64,000 nucleotides of DNA from Hadesarchaea archaeon (GTDB lineage: Archaea > Hadarchaeota > Hadarchaeia > Hadarchaeales > WYZ-LMO6), in the NCBI GenBank assembly GCA_029259185.1, contig JAPDJF010000001.1, forward strand, positions 63,427 through 127,426. The letters run 5' to 3'. The notes under the pieces are model-generated. The model had not been told where the DNA came from and ran no database searches. It saw only the letters and a list, made by a program, of their open reading frames with translations. The position numbers were made by a program, and so were the translations under genes. Each line of letters begins with the position of its first letter. Position 1 is the stretch's first letter. This document shows, in pieces, positions 1,325 to 39,037 of this stretch.

Positions 1325-2113
1325 ATGGGATTCCATCTCGTGGACAAGAAGACAAGAGTGAACTCTGGGAGAAACCGGCCCCAATTTTTCGTTTTAGTGT
1401 GTGTCTTGGCACTTGTTTTGGTTTTTATGGGTCTCATTTTGAGGGTCTTCCATCAAGGGCCCCTGATCGGAGTAGGGGAAGAAATGGTTTATGGGGTATA
1501 TGTGGGTGGCAACAGGGCCGGCACGATGACGTTCTGGGTGGAGGGAACTGAGAGTTTCGATGGTGTAGCTTGTTATGTGGGAAGATATTCGATGATGGTT
1601 GGAGATACCGTTCAAGCTGGGAGGATGGTGTTTGATAAACAGGGCAGACTCAGGCATGCAAAAATCGCTTTGGTGGAGAATCGGAGCCTGAAATGGTCTA
1701 CGGAGATCGGTTACTCGCGGGCGGTCGGGGTGATGCGGATCATCTTCGAAGACAATCGGAACCCTGAAAATTATTCTGTGACAGATAACGCGGTGCTGAT
1801 GCCCGGGGAGACGGTGCTCCCCGCCTACCTCTGGTATCGGTTACGCATGGAAAATTTGGGTCTCGGCTACCAGCTGGAGTTCTACATAAATGTTCTCCCC
1901 CAAGCCACCACACTTGTACCGGCTAGAGTAGCAGTGCGGGGAGAAGAGAGGGTCGACACCCCAATCGGTCGGTTTGATTGTTGGGTAATCAAAGGAGAGA
2001 ATACAACGAGTGGATTTTGGATCACGAAAGATAGGCGTTTGGTGGTGAAGGCGGTGGAAGAGGCGGAGGGGGTGAGCTGGCTATACGTACTTGAAAAACA
2101 TCGGTTGGATTAA
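1325..2113 (+). CDS. Membrane-anchored exported beta-rich protein (DUF3108-like)
   Basis: Single N-terminal TM helix (FFVLVCVLALVLVFMGLIL); C-terminal E.V.TP.G.FDCW...FWI...R..VK pattern. Confidence 0.55.
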   Translation: MGFHLVDKKTRVNSGRNRPQFFVLVCVLALVLVFMGLILRVFHQGPLIGVGEEMVYGVYVGGNRAGTMTFWVEGTESFDGVACYVGRYSMMVGDTVQAGRMVFDKQGRLRHAKIALVENRSLKWSTEIGYSRAVGVMRIIFEDNRNPENYSVTDNAVLMPGETVLPAYLWYRLRMENLGLGYQLEFYINVLPQATTLVPARVAVRGEERVDTPIGRFDCWVIKGENTTSGFWITKDRRLVVKAVEEAEGVSWLYVLEKHRLD

Positions 2114-2151
2114 ATATCAAAAAAAAGAAGAAATTAGCTCCCGGCGGCGGA

Positions 2152-3132
2152 TCAGGTCGCTATCCAGTAGAAGTCCACAGATATCCGCCAATTCTCCACC
2201 GTACTGTTGTATCTCAGCACAACCGTGAAATTCTCCTGTGTCACGTTGCTCACCATTAGAACTATCCAGTTCTCCACGTTTTCCGAGGTAATTCTAATGG
2301 GTGTGACGACTACAGAGGGTGATGTACCGAAATTATCTAGGAACGGGATGGTCTTGGTATTTTCATGTAATCCTACAGAATCACCCACTACATTGTCACT
2401 AGTGATTGAGTTCTCGCCAGCCTCAACGTGTCGGGCAACGGTTGGAGGTCCTATCGTTCCCGTTATGTACAGGTTTTCGACTTGGAGGTTATCCAGAACT
2501 TTTATGTTGTCTGCATTGGGATATGCGGCGATATTTTCTACATACAATGTTGATGCTAGTGACGAGTCTCCGCTGACCGAGAGGGAAGATAGCGTAGTTC
2601 CACCAGCGCTCAGCGTCCCACTTATCGTAACGTTGCCAGTAACAGAGGCGTTCCCTCCGATGCTCAGGTTGTCACCGATCGTTATATTGTCGTTGGCCGT
2701 GAGGTTGGTCACGGTGATATCATCGGCCAGTTGTGTGCTAGTTACCGAGTTTGCTGCGAGTTTACTTCCGGAGATATTGGCATTTGCCGCAATGTCAGCG
2801 TTCACGATTGTTCCGTCGAGAATTTTTTCTGAAGTGATCGCGCCAGCTGCTATATCTGCGGCCACGATCGTTCCATTAACTATCTTGCCACTGGTGATGG
2901 ATTCGTCCGCGATTTTTGCAGTCGTCACGGCCGAATCAGCGATTTTTGCAGTCGTCACAGCACCGTTCGCCAAGTGGACGGTCTCTACTGCGCCGGCCCC
3001 TATCCCTTCCGTTGATTCCAAGTAAGTCACTCTACTCTCGAGAGATGACAATTGCTGGTAGGTGGCGACTCCGAGGGCTGCTATGGCGAGCACTATCGCA
3101 ACCGAGAGGACTACTATTCTGGGTATTTCCAT
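2152..3132 (-). CDS. Membrane-anchored fibre/adhesin-like protein: TM, short coiled coil, 10-aa AVTTAKIAD repeats, C-terminal H-type-lectin/tail-fibre-like domain
   Basis: N-terminal hydrophobic helix; repeats AVTTAKIADS/AVTTAKIADE/SITSGKIVNG/AITSEKILDG; C-terminal F...PSVVVTP...VSNVT..NFTV...FYWIA; GGAGGT RBS upstream. Confidence 0.65.
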   Translation of the reverse strand: MEIPRIVVLSVAIVLAIAALGVATYQQLSSLESRVTYLESTEGIGAGAVETVHLANGAVTTAKIADSAVTTAKIADESITSGKIVNGTIVAADIAAGAITSEKILDGTIVNADIAANANISGSKLAANSVTSTQLADDITVTNLTANDNITIGDNLSIGGNASVTGNVTISGTLSAGGTTLSSLSVSGDSSLASTLYVENIAAYPNADNIKVLDNLQVENLYITGTIGPPTVARHVEAGENSITSDNVVGDSVGLHENTKTIPFLDNFGTSPSVVVTPIRITSENVENWIVLMVSNVTQENFTVVLRYNSTVENWRISVDFYWIAT

Positions 3133-3287
3133 TTCATTCCTACCTCCACTTTTGTTGGGTATTTCTATAGCGCCCCTCCTCGGCGCTTCTCCGTTTCAAA
3201 CAAGGGGGTTAGAGGCACGATTTAAAACTTTTCATTAGTTTTTTAAAAAGAACAAAAATTTTTTAAAGAAAACGATGGAGGGATTGT

Positions 3288-3848
3288 GTGGATCTGTTCA
3301 AAAAATATGCGGATTTTTTGCTGCTGAGTTTTTTCCTCCAAAATCCAACGGGCCAGTTCTATGTAAGAGAACTGGCTGAGAAGTTAGGGCTCAGTCCCTC
3401 TAAGGTGAGTGTGGCTTCCAGAGCACTCGAACTTCAAGGGATATTGAAAAGTGAAGAAAGAGGATTGGCCAAATTTTACAGACTCAACAATGACGTTCCG
3501 TTGGTGAAGGCTTTTAAGGTCGTTCACAGTTTAGCGAAACTCAGCGAAGCTAAGCTCGTCGAAAAACTCTTAGAAAGAGATCCGTCCATAATCTCGATCG
3601 CGGTTTATGGAAGCTATGCATCTGGAACGAACGATGAGAAAAGTGCCATCAAGCTCTTGGTGATCAGTCAGAAAGAAAAAGAAGTGTTTCTAGAGGTATT
3701 GAGGAGCATCGAGGAACGTCATGGGATCCGGCTTGATCTGGAAGTACTCAAGCTCGGGGAGTGGAGAGATCGGGTGAAAAAAAGTGATTCCCTCTATCGA
3801 GAAGTTCTTTCCGCCCACATCTTGCTCTTCGGTTCGAACCTCATCTGA
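3288..3848 (+). CDS. wHTH + minimal nucleotidyltransferase (MNT) fusion, catalytic aspartates substituted
   Basis: N-terminal YVRELAEKLGLS..V...L..LE..G wHTH; GSYASG motif followed by SAIKL instead of SDIDL. Confidence 0.8.
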   Translation: MDLFKKYADFLLLSFFLQNPTGQFYVRELAEKLGLSPSKVSVASRALELQGILKSEERGLAKFYRLNNDVPLVKAFKVVHSLAKLSEAKLVEKLLERDPSIISIAVYGSYASGTNDEKSAIKLLVISQKEKEVFLEVLRSIEERHGIRLDLEVLKLGEWRDRVKKSDSLYREVLSAHILLFGSNLI

Positions 3849-4059
3849 TTGAACTACCTTTTGGAAGAAAATGATTTCGAGAACCCACAAAGCATCAGCT
3901 TTGTCGGAGTTCAGAGCGGAGCCGTGGGGGTGGGGTTAAGAAAATTGAAAATTCTTAATGTGTTTTTGGGTGACCCACACGGCTCCAAACTCGATTTTAA
4001 ACTTTGGATTATATTAATGCTACGGGGAGAGGGCTTCCCCACGAAAAAGGCGGGGATTC

Positions 4060-4419
4060 TCATCCTTTGGATAGTTCCTTCTCTATGGCCTTTATGAATT
4101 CCTTAGCAGAATCCATTGCTCCTTTAGCATCGCTTCGTTTGACAGATAATGTGGGGTCACTATAGATGGCTGAGACGAATCGATTGAACTGATCTAAAGA
4201 GGTCACGTGCTCTCTCAGCTCAGGGTATCGACACCGAAGATACTCGATCATCGTTTGTCTTTCAACCTCGCTCACCCCATTTCTGAAGAGGAGAGCCCTA
4301 GCGGCATGAAACATGGAGATGAGCGAGGCCACCACGGCCATGTCCCGGTATCCTAGAGCATTGCTATCTTTCGCCCGCTTTAACCATTCTTTTGCAACTT
4401 TCAGGGATCTCATACTCAT
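4060..4419 (-). CDS. HEPN domain protein (divergent)
   Basis: AKEWLKRAK...SMFHAARALL..NG...A...A.EFI pattern; start moved to ATG 4419. Confidence 0.75.
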   Translation of the reverse strand: MSMRSLKVAKEWLKRAKDSNALGYRDMAVVASLISMFHAARALLFRNGVSEVERQTMIEYLRCRYPELREHVTSLDQFNRFVSAIYSDPTLSVKRSDAKGAMDSAKEFIKAIEKELSKG

Positions 4420-4531
4420 GTTCAACGGCAAAACCAATTTGAATTGCGTCTCAAAATTTAAAAATTTCAAACTTTGGCGCTTTGCACAAAAATACCGGAA
4501 AACTTAAAATGGTTCCGACAGACCACGTTCG

Positions 4532-4870
4532 ATGTTGGCCTCCAAGACGATAAGAGCTGAACTCTACGGCCTCACCCGGTTCAAGCGCAAGCTTCTGGAG
4601 GACCTCCAAGCCGAGTGGGATCGCGCCCAGGCCCTTGAGAGGGACTACCGGACTCTGAGAGAGCAAACGAGGCATCCACCAGCCGAACGTGCCACCGCTG
4701 CGGAAACGAAGGACGAAGGGTCTCTCAAGGCTTCTTCAAATGCTCGTCGTGTGGGCTGGAGTACAACGCCGACCTCAACGGAGCCATAAATATTGGAGAG
4801 GGGTTCTTGGGCCACTGGCTCAGGGACGGGGGCGTGGGGCTTTCGCCCCTTTAGGGGATCCCGAGCCTCC
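4532..4870 (+). mobile_element. Internally deleted TnpB (IS200/IS605 OrfB) remnant: N-terminus fused to Zn-finger/RuvC-III end
   Basis: MLASKTIRAELYGLT... then in another frame CHRCGNEGRRVSQGFFKCSSCGLEYNADLNGAINIG; downstream GGGGC-TTTC-GCCCC hairpin. Confidence 0.8.
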
Positions 4871-4921
4871 AAGCACAAAAATTGGCCTCAGGGCTGATTT
4901 TTTTGTGCAGAGCCAAACTTT

Positions 4922-5272
4922 GGTTCCGTAAAAGTTTTTGAGGTAATCTCATTAATCTCGCTGGTCAAGGCAGGTGGGTGCGACAAAATCCCATGAGGTG
5001 ATGTGAATGAGCCCCAGAACAAACCCAAATGCCCGCCCCTGCGGAGCAGGGTTCTTGGAAGGTCGGCTTAAGCCAAAGCAAGAGGCGAGTCTACAAGTGT
5101 AGTTCTTGTAGAAAGAGGTTCAATGAGCGGGTGGGAACGCCGTTCCATGGACTGCACTTCCCAGAGGGGGGCCGGGTATTTCACGTAACAGGTGCGCCCC
5201 ATCAGGGGCTGTCGAGTTACGATGTGGGTGCACTGTGACCTGAAATTTTGCTCCAAGCTTTTTTACGGAACC
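4922..5272 (+). mobile_element. Non-autonomous IS6/IS1595-like element with 12-bp terminal inverted repeats and 8-bp target duplication
   Basis: TIR GGTTCCGTAAAA at 4922 and its reverse complement ending 5272; CAAACTTT duplicated at 4914-4921 and 5273-5280; internal transposase zinc-ribbon remnant YKCSSCRKRFNERVGTPF. Confidence 0.85.
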
Positions 5273-5320
5273 CAAACTTTGGGATAATCCCAAAGTTTGG
5301 AGAAGCCCCCCAAACTCTGG
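5272..5320. repeat. Cluster of CCAAA-N-TTTGG palindromes including a 13-bp perfect inverted repeat
   Basis: CCAAACTTTGGGA-TAA-TCCCAAAGTTTGG (5272-5300) and CCAAACTCTGG (5310-5320). Confidence 0.7.
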
Positions 5321-5332
5321 AGAAAGAGGAAA

Positions 5333-5360
5333 GAAAATGGGAAAAAAAGAAGAAAAAAAT
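5333..5360 (-). terminator. Oligo-T archaeal terminator of the surface protein gene
   Basis: Long T-rich tract on the minus strand immediately after the stop at 5373. Confidence 0.55.
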
Positions 5361-5372
5361 TCGTTTTCTTTT

Positions 5373-8240
5373 TTACTTTTTCACTCGCAGTATCGCGATC
5401 GCAGCCAGCACCAACGCGATTATCACGAGGATTATTGCGTAGGTGCCTGTAGGTGTCACAGTCCGTTCCACCGTGAGTGAAATTGCTGGGCTCGTGTTTC
5501 CTGCTGCATCGGTGGCAATCAGCGTGATCACATTTGATCCCTCGAAGACACGAATGCTTTTGCTGAAGCTCCCGTCAGCCTCCAGCGGGACAGTTATCGA
5601 GGTGTCTCCGTAGCTTATGCGCAACTCGATCTCCGTGGGTTCGCTCACGTCATCTGTCACTTTGCCGCTCACGATGACTGAACTCTTGCTTGTGCTCAGC
5701 GAGGTCACAGCTTTTCCGTCGATCGTCAGCTCCGAGATCGTCGGTGGGGTGGCATCAGCCTTCACGTAACCGTATAGCGTTCGTTCACTCTCGTTTCCAG
5801 CAACATCAGTCTGGCTTACCTCGATCTTGGTCGTTACTCCGGCTGTTATGTCCAAGCTAGCGACCCATATCCCGTCTCCATCGGAGTCGGTGACCGTCGT
5901 CGCCAGAGTGGCGGTGGTCCACGGGGAAACGCTTGTGTAGACGTTGATCGTGGCATAGGGTTCGCAAGTACCGCTTATGGTTATCGTTGTCGTATTCAGA
6001 GCTTTAGGTTTGTCGGCTGTCGATGTGGGGTAGCTCGTTGTCAGGACGGGTACACTCGGTGCTTTCGTGTCAACCACGAACGTATAGGACTTGTTGTCCG
6101 ATTGCAGATTGTCGCCGGCGATCACGAATATGCGGTACGTGTTATCGGGTAATCCTCCGGTGAAGGAACCTATCGCCAGCGGGATGGTGTTTTCGAAGTT
6201 CAGTGTGTAGTTGTCATGAGCGAGGGCGTTCGCTAAAGTCGCTATCACGGTACCATTCTCATACTGGAGTTGTACACTGTAGCCACCGTTGTCGCTGAAC
6301 GGCAGGTTCTCTACACCTAGGACGGCATCAGTTATAGTAAGGGTCAACGTGGGAGTGTTGTCGTTGATCACCACACCGTTCTCAAATGCCTTGCCTCCAA
6401 TCGTGCCGAACGTAATCGTTGGGGCAGTCTTGTCGAATGTCACATTCTCCACGTTTTCGGTTCCCTCGTTCCCGGCCTTGTCGATTATCTTGATACCGAT
6501 CACATGGGTTCCTTCGGTCAGTGACAGCTGGTAGTGCCAGTACCCACCGTCACCTGTCGTGGCAGTGTAAGTGGTATTATCGATGCGGATCTTCACCGTC
6601 ATTCCCTTCTGAGTCTGGAGTGCTCCAGCCACGTTGTCCAGCGCACAGTTCTCCAGTAAGTAGGAACCAACATTGGTCTGAACGCCCGGTAGGGCTGCAA
6701 GCATGTCTTGCGGGAACCCTGCTATCTGATCCAGCACTGGAGCAGGTGGGGCTATTCTGTCGATGGTGAAAGTACCCGTGTTATCGCTGACAGCGGTGTG
6801 CCCGACCAGATCTTCAAGCTGGGAGCCGATAACATAGACGGTAGCCGTACCGTCACGCTGTATGTTGTCTCCAGTCGTGTAAGTACCAGTCCATACCGTG
6901 TTGTCAGCGTTTGGGGTCATCGATATCTGAACATTTTCTCCGTTGTTCTCAGCTACCATCACGTTTTCGAGCTTAGCCAAGGGTTCACTAGCCGTGACGG
7001 TGATGGTCACGGTCACGTTGTCTTTGACCCAGTCTGGTGACACACTCACACTCACGGTTGGTGGGGTGTTGTCGACCGTCAGCGTGATTTCCTTCTGAAC
7101 AAGTGCTCCCTGAGCATCGGTGGTTCGCACATAGATGGTATAGTCTCCTCCAGCCGTGGGGGTAATCAGGGCGAACGGGAAGTCGAGTTGTGCACCACTC
7201 GCTATCTTGTTGTCCCCTATACCAGCCCACTCGGCAAAATTGCCTGTGGGTAGCGTGCTCGTGCCTGTGGTCTGAGTCCATCCTACTGGCTGGTTCTCAG
7301 CGGCGGCGGCGGTTTCCGAAGTCATGAGGAGGTTCTCTCCGGATTTTCTAATGACTCGGGTATTCTCGGCTACCACAGCCCCGATCGCATTTTCGAGCTT
7401 CACTAGGGTACCCACTGGTAGTACGACCTCATTTTCGCCGCTGCCACCCACCGTGGCGGGCAACTCCAACAGGGTACCGGCCGCAATGGTCACAGCTTCG
7501 ACGTTTTCCTTCTTCGCACTCACATCCGTGACCGTTGTAGAAGTTCCATTGTCGAGCACCACGTTCTCCTCCTCAGCCATCTTCACGTAGGTATTCTCTC
7601 CAACCGTTACGTTCCTGTCTGCGGTCAGGTACACTAGGGTGTTCTCCGGCAACTTCACGATGTTTCCGCTCAGCACGATTACCTGAGTATCGCTGACAAG
7701 TTTCACGTCGCCATTGTCCAGCGTGAATTCATTTTCAACCGTAGTCTCCACATTTTCGCCAGCCAATTGGGCCCTGGAGTCCTGCTGTAACTTCAAGCTA
7801 GCATTTTCGGATAGGAGGTACCAAACCCCCGTAGTCACCGCTCGCACATTATCCCCGGCTTTTCGGATCACAACCGTTCCACTAGGTACGACGATGTTTT
7901 CACCAGGCAGCAAGGACAACGTAGTACCAGCTGGTAGGACAACAATGTTGTCGTTCCCGACTTCACTTCCGCTAAGTTGGACTACACTATCCTTAGGTAT
8001 CTTCGTTAGGGTGTTGATCGTAAAGGTGGAGGGAACGACGATCCGAACGTTATCGATCGCGTCAGGCCCCCCGTTCTGGACGGTTATAGTCAAGACCACC
8101 GAGGTATTCTCTCTGACCAAGTTCTCGCTAATGCTCACCGTGGGTTCATGGGTAGCACTGACGCTGGTCGACACCGCCATAGCGGCAATCGACGTCATCA
8201 TTATGGCTGCGATCACTAGCGCCGCTTTTTCTTTCATCAT
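5373..8240 (-). CDS. Large cell-surface (S-layer-like) protein with signal peptide, internally duplicated N-terminal domain, Ig-like repeats and C-terminal TM anchor
   Basis: True start MMKEKAALVIA at 8240 with AGGAGG RBS; D.AGN / D.TPP / D..AP Ig-like motifs; repeat GNDNIVVLPAGT...VIRKAGDN vs GENEVVLPVGT...VIRKSGEN; TM + RVKK tail. Confidence 0.85.
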   Translation of the reverse strand: MMKEKAALVIAAIMMTSIAAMAVSTSVSATHEPTVSISENLVRENTSVVLTITVQNGGPDAIDNVRIVVPSTFTINTLTKIPKDSVVQLSGSEVGNDNIVVLPAGTTLSLLPGENIVVPSGTVVIRKAGDNVRAVTTGVWYLLSENASLKLQQDSRAQLAGENVETTVENEFTLDNGDVKLVSDTQVIVLSGNIVKLPENTLVYLTADRNVTVGENTYVKMAEEENVVLDNGTSTTVTDVSAKKENVEAVTIAAGTLLELPATVGGSGENEVVLPVGTLVKLENAIGAVVAENTRVIRKSGENLLMTSETAAAAENQPVGWTQTTGTSTLPTGNFAEWAGIGDNKIASGAQLDFPFALITPTAGGDYTIYVRTTDAQGALVQKEITLTVDNTPPTVSVSVSPDWVKDNVTVTITVTASEPLAKLENVMVAENNGENVQISMTPNADNTVWTGTYTTGDNIQRDGTATVYVIGSQLEDLVGHTAVSDNTGTFTIDRIAPPAPVLDQIAGFPQDMLAALPGVQTNVGSYLLENCALDNVAGALQTQKGMTVKIRIDNTTYTATTGDGGYWHYQLSLTEGTHVIGIKIIDKAGNEGTENVENVTFDKTAPTITFGTIGGKAFENGVVINDNTPTLTLTITDAVLGVENLPFSDNGGYSVQLQYENGTVIATLANALAHDNYTLNFENTIPLAIGSFTGGLPDNTYRIFVIAGDNLQSDNKSYTFVVDTKAPSVPVLTTSYPTSTADKPKALNTTTITISGTCEPYATINVYTSVSPWTTATLATTVTDSDGDGIWVASLDITAGVTTKIEVSQTDVAGNESERTLYGYVKADATPPTISELTIDGKAVTSLSTSKSSVIVSGKVTDDVSEPTEIELRISYGDTSITVPLEADGSFSKSIRVFEGSNVITLIATDAAGNTSPAISLTVERTVTPTGTYAIILVIIALVLAAIAILRVKK

Positions 8241-19087: not shown

Positions 19088-20338
19088 TTGATGGATAGGA
19101 TCGAGAGTATCTCCGCACGAAAAATACTGGACAGCCGGGGAAATCCCACGGTAGAGGTGGAGGTTAGAGGGGGGAAGGGAGTTGGCAGGGCAGCGGCCCC
19201 AGGCGGTGCCAGCAGGGGAAAACATGAAGTGATAGCATTTCCCCCAGGCGGGGTGGAGGTCTCCATCCGCCTGTTAGAGGAGACCGTACGTCCTGCGTTG
19301 GTGGGGGAGGAACTCGATTTCAAGCGGGTGGACACAGTGTTAAGAGAGCTCGATGGTACCTCCAACTTCGCTAAGATCGGAGGAAACTTAGCTGTGGCCA
19401 TCTCGATGGCAACCGCCAAGGCCTCAGCCTCTTCGAGGGGCCTCCCTCTCTTCCGATGTTTGGGAGAAGGGGTGGTGTGTATCCCGTTCCCCCTCGGAAA
19501 CGTGCTCGGGGGTGGAGCGCATGCGGGGAGGAATGCTCCAGACATCCAAGAGTTCTTGATAATACCTGTGGGGGCTAAAAAGTTCATCGACGCGGCTTTC
19601 GCAAATGCACGAGTGCACCGGAGGGTGAGAGAATACTTGGAGTTCGAGGACGAACGGTTTTCCGGTGGAAAAGGTGATGAGGGAGCTTGGGCCCCAAACC
19701 TAGACAACTCGAAGGCGCTGGAGGTGGTCGTCCGGGCTTGTGAGGAGATAAGTGGGGAGGTGGGATTCCAGATCAGACCCGGGCTGGATGTGGCTGCGAG
19801 CGAGTTGTACGATGAGCGTAGGGGAAAGTATGTGTATAGTCGGGAAGGGGTAACCCGTGATGGGGGCGAGCAGGTGGATTACGTGGTGGATCTGATCAGG
19901 ACCTACAAGCTTTTCTACGTTGAGGATCCTCTCCACCAAGAGGATTTCAAAGGGTTCTCCGAACTAACGAGCAAAGTTGGGGATAGATGTCTGGTGTGTG
20001 GAGATGATCTGTTCGTCACGAACGTGGACAGGATAAGAAGGGGGGTGGAGGAAGGGGCTGCAAACGCTGTGATCGTGAAGCCAAACCAAGTTGGAACTCT
20101 GAGCGGTACGAGCGCAGCTATCGGGCTGGCCAAGCGGAACGGATGGTTACCGGTGATGTCCCATCGCTCGGGAGAGACCACGGATGAGACGATCTCTCAC
20201 CTAGCGGTGGGGTGGGGATGTCCCATAATAAAAACAGGAGTGGTAGGGGGCGAACGGATAGCAAAGCTCAATGAGCTGATCCGGATAGAGGAAGAACTCG
20301 GAGAAAAAGCTGGAATGGCGAAATTGCAGAACATTTGA
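19088..20338 (+). CDS. eno: Enolase
   Basis: ILDSRGNPTVEVE, GDEG, GDDLFVTN, KPNQ.G, SHRSGET. Confidence 0.97.
   Translation: MMDRIESISARKILDSRGNPTVEVEVRGGKGVGRAAAPGGASRGKHEVIAFPPGGVEVSIRLLEETVRPALVGEELDFKRVDTVLRELDGTSNFAKIGGNLAVAISMATAKASASSRGLPLFRCLGEGVVCIPFPLGNVLGGGAHAGRNAPDIQEFLIIPVGAKKFIDAAFANARVHRRVREYLEFEDERFSGGKGDEGAWAPNLDNSKALEVVVRACEEISGEVGFQIRPGLDVAASELYDERRGKYVYSREGVTRDGGEQVDYVVDLIRTYKLFYVEDPLHQEDFKGFSELTSKVGDRCLVCGDDLFVTNVDRIRRGVEEGAANAVIVKPNQVGTLSGTSAAIGLAKRNGWLPVMSHRSGETTDETISHLAVGWGCPIIKTGVVGGERIAKLNELIRIEEELGEKAGMAKLQNI

Positions 20339-38032: not shown

Positions 38033-39037
<1,005 letters not shown>

Follow-up and report, generated by a model that had tools for sequence, protein, structure and literature searches.

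Exported proteins of the window

The window analysed here is a stretch of 64,000 nucleotides from the genome of a Hadesarchaea archaeon (G000; assembly GCA_029259185.1, contig JAPDJF010000001.1, positions 63,427 to 127,426), an assembly of 1.27 Mb in 54 contigs that is 94.9% complete. Its first part encodes three exported proteins, namely a large surface protein, a membrane-anchored fibre-like protein and a DUF3108-like protein (Table 1), in which many Asn residues are directly preceded by Asp or Glu. A preliminary description of this DNA had pointed out the dipeptide, here written [D/E]-N, and had suggested that it might be recognised by an oligosaccharyltransferase (OST) or another extracytoplasmic enzyme, or that it might form turns for dense cation binding or cross-linking. 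Archaeal AglB and eukaryotic STT3, the catalytic proteins of N-glycosylation, normally act on Asn-X-Ser/Thr (N-x-S/T; CAZy GT66), and their WWDYG motif forms the pocket for the Ser or Thr. The analysis of [D/E]-N involves both the exported proteins and the AglB of this genome, which is encoded outside the window.

In the large surface protein, 44 of the 62 Asn follow an acidic residue (Asp in 19 cases and Glu in 25), the same number as in the preliminary description. Asp and Glu together make up 11.1% of the residues, so only 6.9 such pairs are expected (binomial p = 8e-27, for the long open reading frame). A Ser or Thr at +2 accompanies 9 of the 44 sites, again as first counted, and N-x-S/T occurs 13 times in total. 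The dipeptide is missing from the 240 residues next to the membrane, where none of the five Asn follows an acid; these Asn are of the A-G-N, L-N and S-N types. The Pfam domains recognised in this protein are Big_13, Glucodextran_B, Big_6 and Big_3_3.

The fibre-like protein has 14 [D/E]-N among its 27 Asn and 12 among the 15 Asn of its distal part (residues 200-326, window 2155-2535), and both counts agree with the earlier ones. Its stalk (residues 56-167) had been considered free of the motif; it contains only two such pairs, the reverse of the picture in the distal part. The stalk (window 2632-2967, minus strand) is a short-period repeat (ITIGDNLSIGGNASVTGNVTISG) with seven N-x-S/T (NGT, NIS, NLT, NIT, NLS, NAS, NVT), whose Asn are probably structural residues of the repeat. 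In the DUF3108-like protein, 6 of 9 ectodomain Asn and 6 of 11 Asn overall belong to the dipeptide. The two cytoplasmic proteins chosen as controls have also been recounted with the same outcome as before: enolase (19088-20338) has 1 of 14 and GAPDH (38033-39037, Pfam Gp_dh_N/C) has 2 of 13.

Table 1. Positions of the proteins and protein regions discussed (window positions unless a contig is named; aa, amino acids; TM, transmembrane; Ig, immunoglobulin)
Feature	Position	Strand	Basis or remarks
Large surface protein of type I (955 aa with the Met at 8240 as start)	5373..8240	-	Signal peptide, all-beta/Ig-like string, C-terminal TM anchor
Large protein, residues 40-716: distal ectodomain, rich in [D/E]-N, with all 44 sites	6093..8123	-	Site list
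Membrane-proximal domains of the large protein, residues 717-930, [D/E]-N at 0 of 5 Asn	5451..6092	-	Counts
C-terminal TM anchor of the large protein, residues 932-951, then a short basic tail	5388..5447	-	Helix in model and sequence
Fibre-like protein of 326 aa, anchored in the membrane, with an H-type-lectin-like domain at the C-terminus	2152..3132	-	H_lectin E 7.8e-5, just below cut-off
DUF3108-like protein of 262 aa, exported or anchored	1325..2113	+	Pfam DUF3108 E 4.4e-7
AglB, 785 aa, outside the window	G000:C4:35179-37536		Sole STT3 match in G000

The dipeptide across the proteome

Genes of G000 were called with a codon-usage score (n = 1249), and the proteins were classified by their Kyte-Doolittle hydrophobic segments. 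This classification yielded 1010 cytoplasmic proteins and 79 "exported" proteins, of which the ectodomains were counted, and the number of [D/E]-N expected in a given protein was calculated from the composition of that protein.

The proteome-wide count, a check that the preliminary description had proposed, shows that the excess is confined to extracytoplasmic parts. In cytoplasmic proteins, 919 of 7423 Asn follow Asp or Glu, an observed/expected ratio (O/E) of 0.93, and in exported ectodomains the count is 357 of 858 where 121 are expected (O/E 2.95); multipass proteins have 99 of 608 (O/E 2.22). Without the three proteins of the window the ectodomains still reach 293 of 760 (O/E 2.67), and stricter definitions of the N-terminal hydrophobic segment give 2.83-2.87. 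Among all 400 dipeptides, EN is the most over-represented one in the exported set (3.38, and 1.09 in the cytoplasm), while DN has an O/E of 2.26 in exported and 0.60 in cytoplasmic proteins. Exported proteins contain 4.08 Asn per 100 residues and cytoplasmic proteins 2.61, and this surplus consists entirely of [D/E]-N (1.70 vs 0.32 per 100 residues), all other Asn being present at 2.38 and 2.29.

The only strong signal around the Asn of ectodomains is found at position -1, where Glu is enriched 3.37-fold and Asp 2.25-fold; at +2, Ser reaches 1.18 and Thr is outside the top five. N-x-S/T enrichment was sought in the exported proteins of G000 and none was found (O/E 1.05; cytoplasm 0.92). Like classical sequons, [D/E]-N sites disfavour Pro at +1 (0.31); Val, Ile, Phe and Trp are enriched at +1, Val and Ile are enriched at +3, and Asp at -2 has a value of 0.51. 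The signal is directional and Asn-specific: in exported proteins the reverse dipeptide N[DE] has an O/E of 0.90, [DE]xN, the register used by PglB, 0.83, [DE]Q 0.64, and [DE]S, [DE]T and [DE]D 0.72-0.83. All eight possible codon pairs are in use (117, 69, 60, 36, 30, 22, 19 and 8 occurrences), which makes the excess a feature of the proteins; a cause at the DNA level, in the form of a single over-represented hexamer, was rejected for this reason.

The excess is also spread over many protein families. The 79 exported proteins form 59 BLAST clusters, the largest one with 13 paralogues. Three or more Asn are present in 51 clusters, and in 41 of these the observed number exceeds the expected one (O/E of at least 2 in 29 clusters, median 2.39); for cytoplasmic proteins, the corresponding figures are 356 of 821 and a median of 0.85. 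Most of the proteins richest in [D/E]-N are either pilin-like or outside any Pfam family. Two membrane proteins of known topology give a clear picture: a MacB/FtsX-type permease has the dipeptide at 8 of the 11 Asn in its two periplasmic core domains, as delimited by Pfam, and at 0 of 9 elsewhere, and AglB itself has it at 7 of 18 Asn in its external C-terminal domain and at 0 of 1 elsewhere. A multipass protein of 724 residues without a Pfam family (G000:C2:13817-15991, minus strand) has 12 [D/E]-N among 28 Asn, with 2.7 expected.

Relatives and outgroups

The same pipeline was applied to samples of 400-500 kb from each of six further genomes, with 100 kb extra for G037. Three of them are relatives within Hadarchaeales, namely G003 from the same family, G006 (family f2) and G037 (family f3). 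The outgroups are Methanocaldococcus indicus, Thermococcus sp. JdFR-02 and G002, a sister lineage that is the sole sampled genome within the phylum but outside the order.

The excess of [D/E]-N recurs in the Hadarchaeales relatives and is absent from the three outgroups (Table 2), the comparison that the preliminary description had called for. In G037 it comes from E-N, with an O/E of 1.79 in exported proteins (55/309, p 1.6e-5) and 1.23 in the cytoplasm, D-N being at 0.76 in exported proteins. Methanocaldococcus and Thermococcus have an excess of N-x-S/T, so the pipeline picks up the classical sequon in genomes expected to use it. At the edge of the order, the [D/E]-N signature and the N-x-S/T signature take each other's place, and this fit is graded, not perfect.

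Table 2. AglB pocket motif and O/E of the two sequence patterns in the sampled genomes
Genome	AglB motif	[DE]N exported	[DE]N cytoplasm	N-x-S/T exported	N-x-S/T cytoplasm
G003 (same family)	EWSYGH	3.09 (133/406, p 2e-33)	0.98	1.07	
G006 (f2)	QWSFGH	1.76 (78/347, p 4e-7)	0.90	1.05	
G037 (f3)	PWSYGH	1.40	1.09	1.10	
G002	WWDYGY (WWDYGYWI)	0.99	0.85	0.99	
Methanocaldococcus indicus		0.94	0.98	1.73	0.88
Thermococcus sp. JdFR-02		0.99	1.04	1.31	0.94

A different kind of bias was observed in cytoplasmic proteins, in which Asp at -1 of Asn is scarce in G000 (0.60), G002 (0.64), G003 (0.71), G006 (0.75), G037 (0.83) and Thermococcus (0.89); in Methanocaldococcus it is not among the lowest values listed. 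This scarcity of cytoplasmic Asp-Asn in most genomes analysed is a general bias, unrelated to the exported excess.

The oligosaccharyltransferase AglB

AglB scores 46-48 bits against Pfam STT3 (PF02516; cut-off 24.5, residues 78-209), and a search with PMT_2 for other enzymes of the PMT_2-like glycosyltransferase C-fold (GT-C) in G000 returned AglB alone. A profile built from 14 AglB sequences matches human STT3A (E 2.3e-37), AglB from Archaeoglobus fulgidus (AfAglB, 1.1e-15) and PglB (1.6e-7). The AlphaFold model of the protein has a predicted local distance difference test score (pLDDT) of 85.8 and a predicted template modelling score of 0.81. When it is aligned to known structures (VIA-align, residues 1-783), the best matches are STT3A (Z 31.7, 542 residues aligned, root-mean-square deviation 5.1) and yeast Stt3 (Z 31.3), followed by AfAglB 5gmy (Z 27.4, 537 aligned, 4.6) and PglB 6gxc (Z 24.4, 488 aligned, 3.8), while other GT-C enzymes such as DPY19, PMT and ArnT do not exceed a Z of 21.5. 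As judged from the model, the AglB of Hadarchaeales keeps the OST fold, with a GT-C membrane domain and a C-terminal globular domain, and is closest to OST catalytic subunits.

The catalytic acids of the two DXD-type motifs are also in place. D37 and D151 are invariant in two alignments of 14 and 29 sequences, as is E347; E153 shows almost no variation in the smaller alignment, and HMMER pairs the FDRE of AglB with FDNE/YDNE in human STT3B/A. E347 belongs to an R-Y-A-x-E motif in a loop modelled with low confidence (305-350), and by its position it may correspond to the Glu of the TIXE/SVSE motif in external loop 5.

The acceptor pocket is where the enzyme departs from other OSTs. Inspection of the WWDYG region, another of the checks proposed at the outset, revealed that QWSYGH (residues 513-518) aligns to the WWDYGY of human STT3A/B with HMMER. 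A DK/MI motif was looked for downstream of QWSYG, by eye and by regular expression, and neither DxxK nor MxxI could be placed there. All AglB copies of Hadarchaeales inspected carry xWS[YFH]GH, where x is Gln, Glu, Pro or His, and an AglB match is present in 55 of the 61 Hadarchaeota genomes searched. Relatives of this AglB in named records come from metagenome-assembled genomes of Hadesarchaea, Hadarchaeales or Hadarchaeota. In a library of 1.84 billion proteins, 37 of the 56 closest hits have the xWS variant and none has WWD, the other 19 being fragments or further variants (EWAIGH, HWELGY), whereas WWD[YF]G is present in 86 of the 94 hits that follow. In the AglB loci of Methanocaldococcus and Thermococcus the scan found no WW-type motif, and these loci may miss the C-terminal region.

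A second AglB-like group (P0132, P0134, P0139, P0141, P0143, P0145) matches the Hadarchaeales enzyme with E values of 1e-24 to 1e-50 and has, at the WWDYG position, HWELGY, DWEIGY, DWYLGY, PWPVGY, PFGIGH and HWEMGY. Its hosts were sought among species-representative genomes; a scan with a single protein gave nothing and one with an alignment returned only the AglB of Hadesarchaea. This group may represent additional lineages whose acceptor rules have changed.

An Arg lies four residues ahead of E347, in the R-Y-A-x-E motif, in 11 of 13 Hadarchaeales sequences. Because R331 of PglB reads an acid at -2, this Arg of external loop 5 is suggested by analogy as a candidate reader of the acid at -1. 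The external domain of AglB contains two further conserved stretches, W-E-N-D-P (residues 542-546, nearly invariant) and F-G-E-N-R-E-N-V-V (660-668), which are conserved in both families f1 and f2. AglB may modify itself at these motifs, or they may be structural.

Genes for a UDP-Glc/GDP-Man dehydrogenase and a sugar nucleotidyltransferase are located just upstream of aglB. Four of the seven GT2 matches are on the same contig, 17-25 kb upstream (G000:C4:9638-18311), and this group is likely a glycan-assembly cluster. A gene of the AglH type (PF00953) was sought in G000 and none was found.

The surface-protein family and the setting of its sites

Homologues of the large protein (n = 92, 33-52% identity) are, wherever the record is named, from Hadesarchaea. 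All 92 have an excess of [D/E]-N, with O/E values of 2.46-7.04 and a pooled count of 3516 of 6220 Asn, compared with 708 expected; their O/E for N-x-S/T is 0.13-1.39 and mostly below 1. Orthologues from families f2, f4 and f5 have 49 of 91, 18 of 31 and 19 of 33, respectively, and searches with the large protein found no orthologue in G037 or G002. The 955-residue protein is the probable main surface protein of Hadarchaeales, comparable to an S-layer protein.

In an alignment of 81 homologues, [D/E]-N occurs at 2.8-6.8 per length decile in deciles 1-8 and at 0.2 and 0.0 in deciles 9 and 10, while other Asn are evenly distributed (2.4-3.8). This profile makes the membrane-proximal gap a trait of the family. 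The 44 sites of the window protein are kept as [D/E]-N in a mean of 54% of these homologues, compared with a residue identity of 42%; there are 30 columns with the dipeptide in at least 50% of sequences and 17 with at least 80%. At the same time, 246 columns have it in at least one homologue, and each sequence has about 38.

The 30 conserved columns further allow the two residues to be followed together. Of their cells, 1899 contain [D/E]-N, 81 have only the Asn, 192 have only the acid and 255 have lost both, so that joint loss affects 10.5% of cells, roughly four times the 2.5% expected if the losses were independent. Asp and Glu replace each other in 19 of the 30 columns. The joint loss and the alternation of the two acids indicate, from the alignment, that the pair behaves as a single selected unit in which the charge of the acid matters and its identity does not.

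The AlphaFold model of the large protein, based on an alignment of 61 sequences, has a mean pLDDT of 87.7 and is all-beta apart from the helix at 932-951. The sites had been expected in surface loops, and in this confident model they lie mainly in turns: 28 of the 44 Asn are outside regular secondary structure (DSSP states), and 29 are at the start of a strand or 0-2 residues ahead of it, where about 14 would be expected from a background of 32% of positions. A Foldseek search with the whole model returned generic strings of Ig domains, including the S-layer protein of N. maritimus (8c8m; E 1.4e-13, TM-score 0.15-0.21), and no functional claim is made from it.

Interpretation of the dipeptide

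We consider it somewhat probable that [D/E]-N is a lineage-wide sequon for N-glycosylation, as the in-silico checks on the proteome, the relatives, the pocket and the turns all support the reading that had been put forward. A switch of sequon is the simplest account of the statistical, comparative and structural-bioinformatic results taken together. The more detailed version of this proposal is evenly poised. It states that the order Hadarchaeales performs OST-dependent N-glycosylation on a two-residue [Glu/Asp]-Asn, that its AglB reads the carboxylate at -1 and not the hydroxyl at +2, that it represents the first natural OST lineage without Asn-X-Ser/Thr, and that the main surface protein carries around 40 glycans. 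We infer three of its elements, namely the glycosylation of the Asn, AglB as the enzyme and the mode in which the acid at -1 is read.

According to this proposal, the WWD of WWDYG would have been replaced by (Q/E/P/H)-W-S in the single AglB of Hadarchaeales. The enzyme would have stopped reading the hydroxyl at +2 and would need an acid at -1, with a sequon of the form [E>D]-N-(not Pro), and the classical sequon would no longer be under selection in this order. Exposed turns of the surface proteins would be glycosylated after translocation, at some 40 sites on the main surface protein, and a dense glycan coat would form that leaves the membrane-adjacent domains bare.

Several observations weigh against the sequon. 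To our knowledge, reading of position -1 has not been described for any OST, and a search of the open-access literature and bioRxiv found no mass-spectrometric or chemical evidence for G000 or any other Hadesarchaeon. Family f3 has PWSYGH or EWSHGH in its AglB and yet shows a weak excess that is limited to Glu (1.79 vs 1.23 in the cytoplasm). Both the fairly good positional conservation of the sites and their location in strand-initiating turns would suit a structural motif equally well. When 71 multipass proteins were subjected to a positive-inside test, the two sides of the membrane were not separated (2.11 outside, 1.62 inside), and the relatives sampled are not independent of one another. 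Genes were called, and proteins assigned to the "exported" class, with our own procedures, the latter by a crude classification on hydrophobicity. At least two of the five window members of this class are cytoplasmic (a DEAD-box helicase with 4 of 20 and Rpo7 with 0 of 2), a contamination that dilutes the signal and does not create it.

The strongest competing account takes the dipeptide as a structural or cation-binding motif of turns, which would cap the start of strands or provide Ca2+ or Mg2+ ligands that rigidify or cross-link the envelope; AglB would then be unrelated to it, its pocket reflecting another or a lost substrate. This account is rather unlikely, even though it has the setting of the sites on its side: the 29 of 44 near strand starts, the hydrophobic residues at +1 and +3 (Val, Ile, Phe, Trp), the 17 columns conserved in at least 80% of the 81 homologues, and the interchange of Asp and Glu, which is possible for metal ligands. 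It would also accommodate the conserved WENDP and FGENRENVV of the external domain of AglB, f2 included, and the retention of xWS in f3 with little excess. What it does not explain is the enrichment of N-x-S/T that vanishes exactly where the OST pocket changes. The motif extends, moreover, over unrelated folds (41 of 51 clusters), and its turnover, with 246 columns for about 38 sites per sequence, resembles that of a sequon. It is absent from the beta-rich exported proteins of the three outgroups (O/E 0.94-0.99) and, within the surface-protein family itself, from the Ig-like domains close to the membrane, so [D/E]-N is not intrinsic to these folds.

Another extracytoplasmic modification by a different enzyme, for instance isopeptide or other cross-links, or a transfer to the Asn or the acid that does not involve AglB, appears improbable. 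It would agree with a motif that is compartment-specific and whose residues are coupled, an exported protein with a transglutaminase core is encoded in the genome (G000:C17:13443-15206), and many of the proteins rich in [D/E]-N are pilin-like or of no known family. Against this, no candidate enzyme family with a fitting phylogenetic distribution has been identified, and this clade already offers a candidate in AglB, whose acceptor pocket has changed. Lys-Asn isopeptides were considered separately and are unlikely as a general role, as the large protein has 44 sites and 35 Lys. It is very unlikely that the excess is a functionless by-product of composition, paralogy or classification, since, despite a largest cluster of 13 paralogues and crude gene calling and export prediction, expectations were taken within the composition of each protein, the reverse dipeptide and the neighbouring registers stay at or below 1, the excess is seen in 41 of 51 independent clusters, it survives without the window proteins (2.67) and under stricter signal definitions (2.83-2.87), the identical pipeline gives about 1.0 in the three outgroups, and joint loss of the pair is about four times that expected under independence.

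In the same literature, no [D/E]-N sequon or xWS pocket variant was found described, and nothing relevant on glycosylation, S-layers or OSTs of Hadesarchaea was found. OST-dependent N-glycosylation as such is known, and it is the proposed acceptor rule that would be new. The sequon offers a concrete, testable hypothesis for an uncultured and globally distributed subsurface group, from which an enrichment of a thermophilic Hadarchaeon has been reported (PMC10811742). If it is true, a lineage in which pocket and acceptor motif were exchanged together would show how sequon specificity evolves, and the pair of enzyme and sequon would be orthogonal to existing ones for glyco-engineering. Glycosite predictors would, in turn, miss the glycoproteome of Hadesarchaea and possibly that of other lineages with variant pockets.

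Neighbouring genes

Two further features accompany the exported proteins in the window. Directly upstream of the gene for the DUF3108-like protein, a DacZ-type diadenylate cyclase (Pfam DAC and DacZ_P) is encoded at 379-1248 on the plus strand. Between the genes of the fibre-like and the large protein lies a convergent pair, which consists of a protein with a winged helix and a minimal nucleotidyltransferase (NTP_transf_2/Polbeta; 3288-3848, plus strand) and a HEPN-domain protein (4060-4470, minus strand). This pair looks like an MNT-HEPN toxin-antitoxin-like module.

Comparison with known systems

A precedent for archaeal N-glycosylation without a hydroxyl at +2 exists in Halobacterium salinarum, where the Asn-2 site of the surface glycoprotein reportedly stays glycosylated after exchange of the Ser at +2. 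Unlike the putative sequon of Hadarchaeales, that case concerns a single site in one protein, and we know of no alternative sequence rule or variant OST pocket described for it.

A preference for acidic residues near the acceptor Asn, similar to the one proposed here, is found in STT3A from Trypanosoma brucei, where an acid at -2 raised turnover without being essential (PMC5421464). The trypanosomal enzyme, however, keeps N-X-S/T and uses position -2, and its preference is one of rate and not a replacement of the sequon.

In Campylobacter PglB, whose sequon is D/E-X1-N-X2-S/T, the acid at -2 is bound through a salt bridge to R331, as stated in the same work (PMC5421464). The resemblance to the system described here is the presence of an acid upstream of the acceptor Asn, which in our case is a putative acceptor. 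PglB, on the contrary, requires both the acid at -2 and a Ser or Thr at +2, whereas in the exported proteins of G000 [DE]xN has an O/E of 0.83 and Ser or Thr at +2 is not enriched. PglB also retains WWDYG.

The closest comparison is with AglB and STT3 themselves. Like these enzymes, the AglB of Hadarchaeales is a single-subunit GT-C protein with the OST fold over its full length (Z 27-32), a Pfam STT3 match and the catalytic acids; sugar-nucleotide genes adjoin aglB, the target would be an Asn of exported proteins, and Pro at +1 is disfavoured. Unlike them, it has (Q/E/P/H)-W-S in place of WWD and no recognisable DK/MI motif, and the exported proteins of G000 are enriched in Asp or Glu at -1 and not in N-x-S/T.

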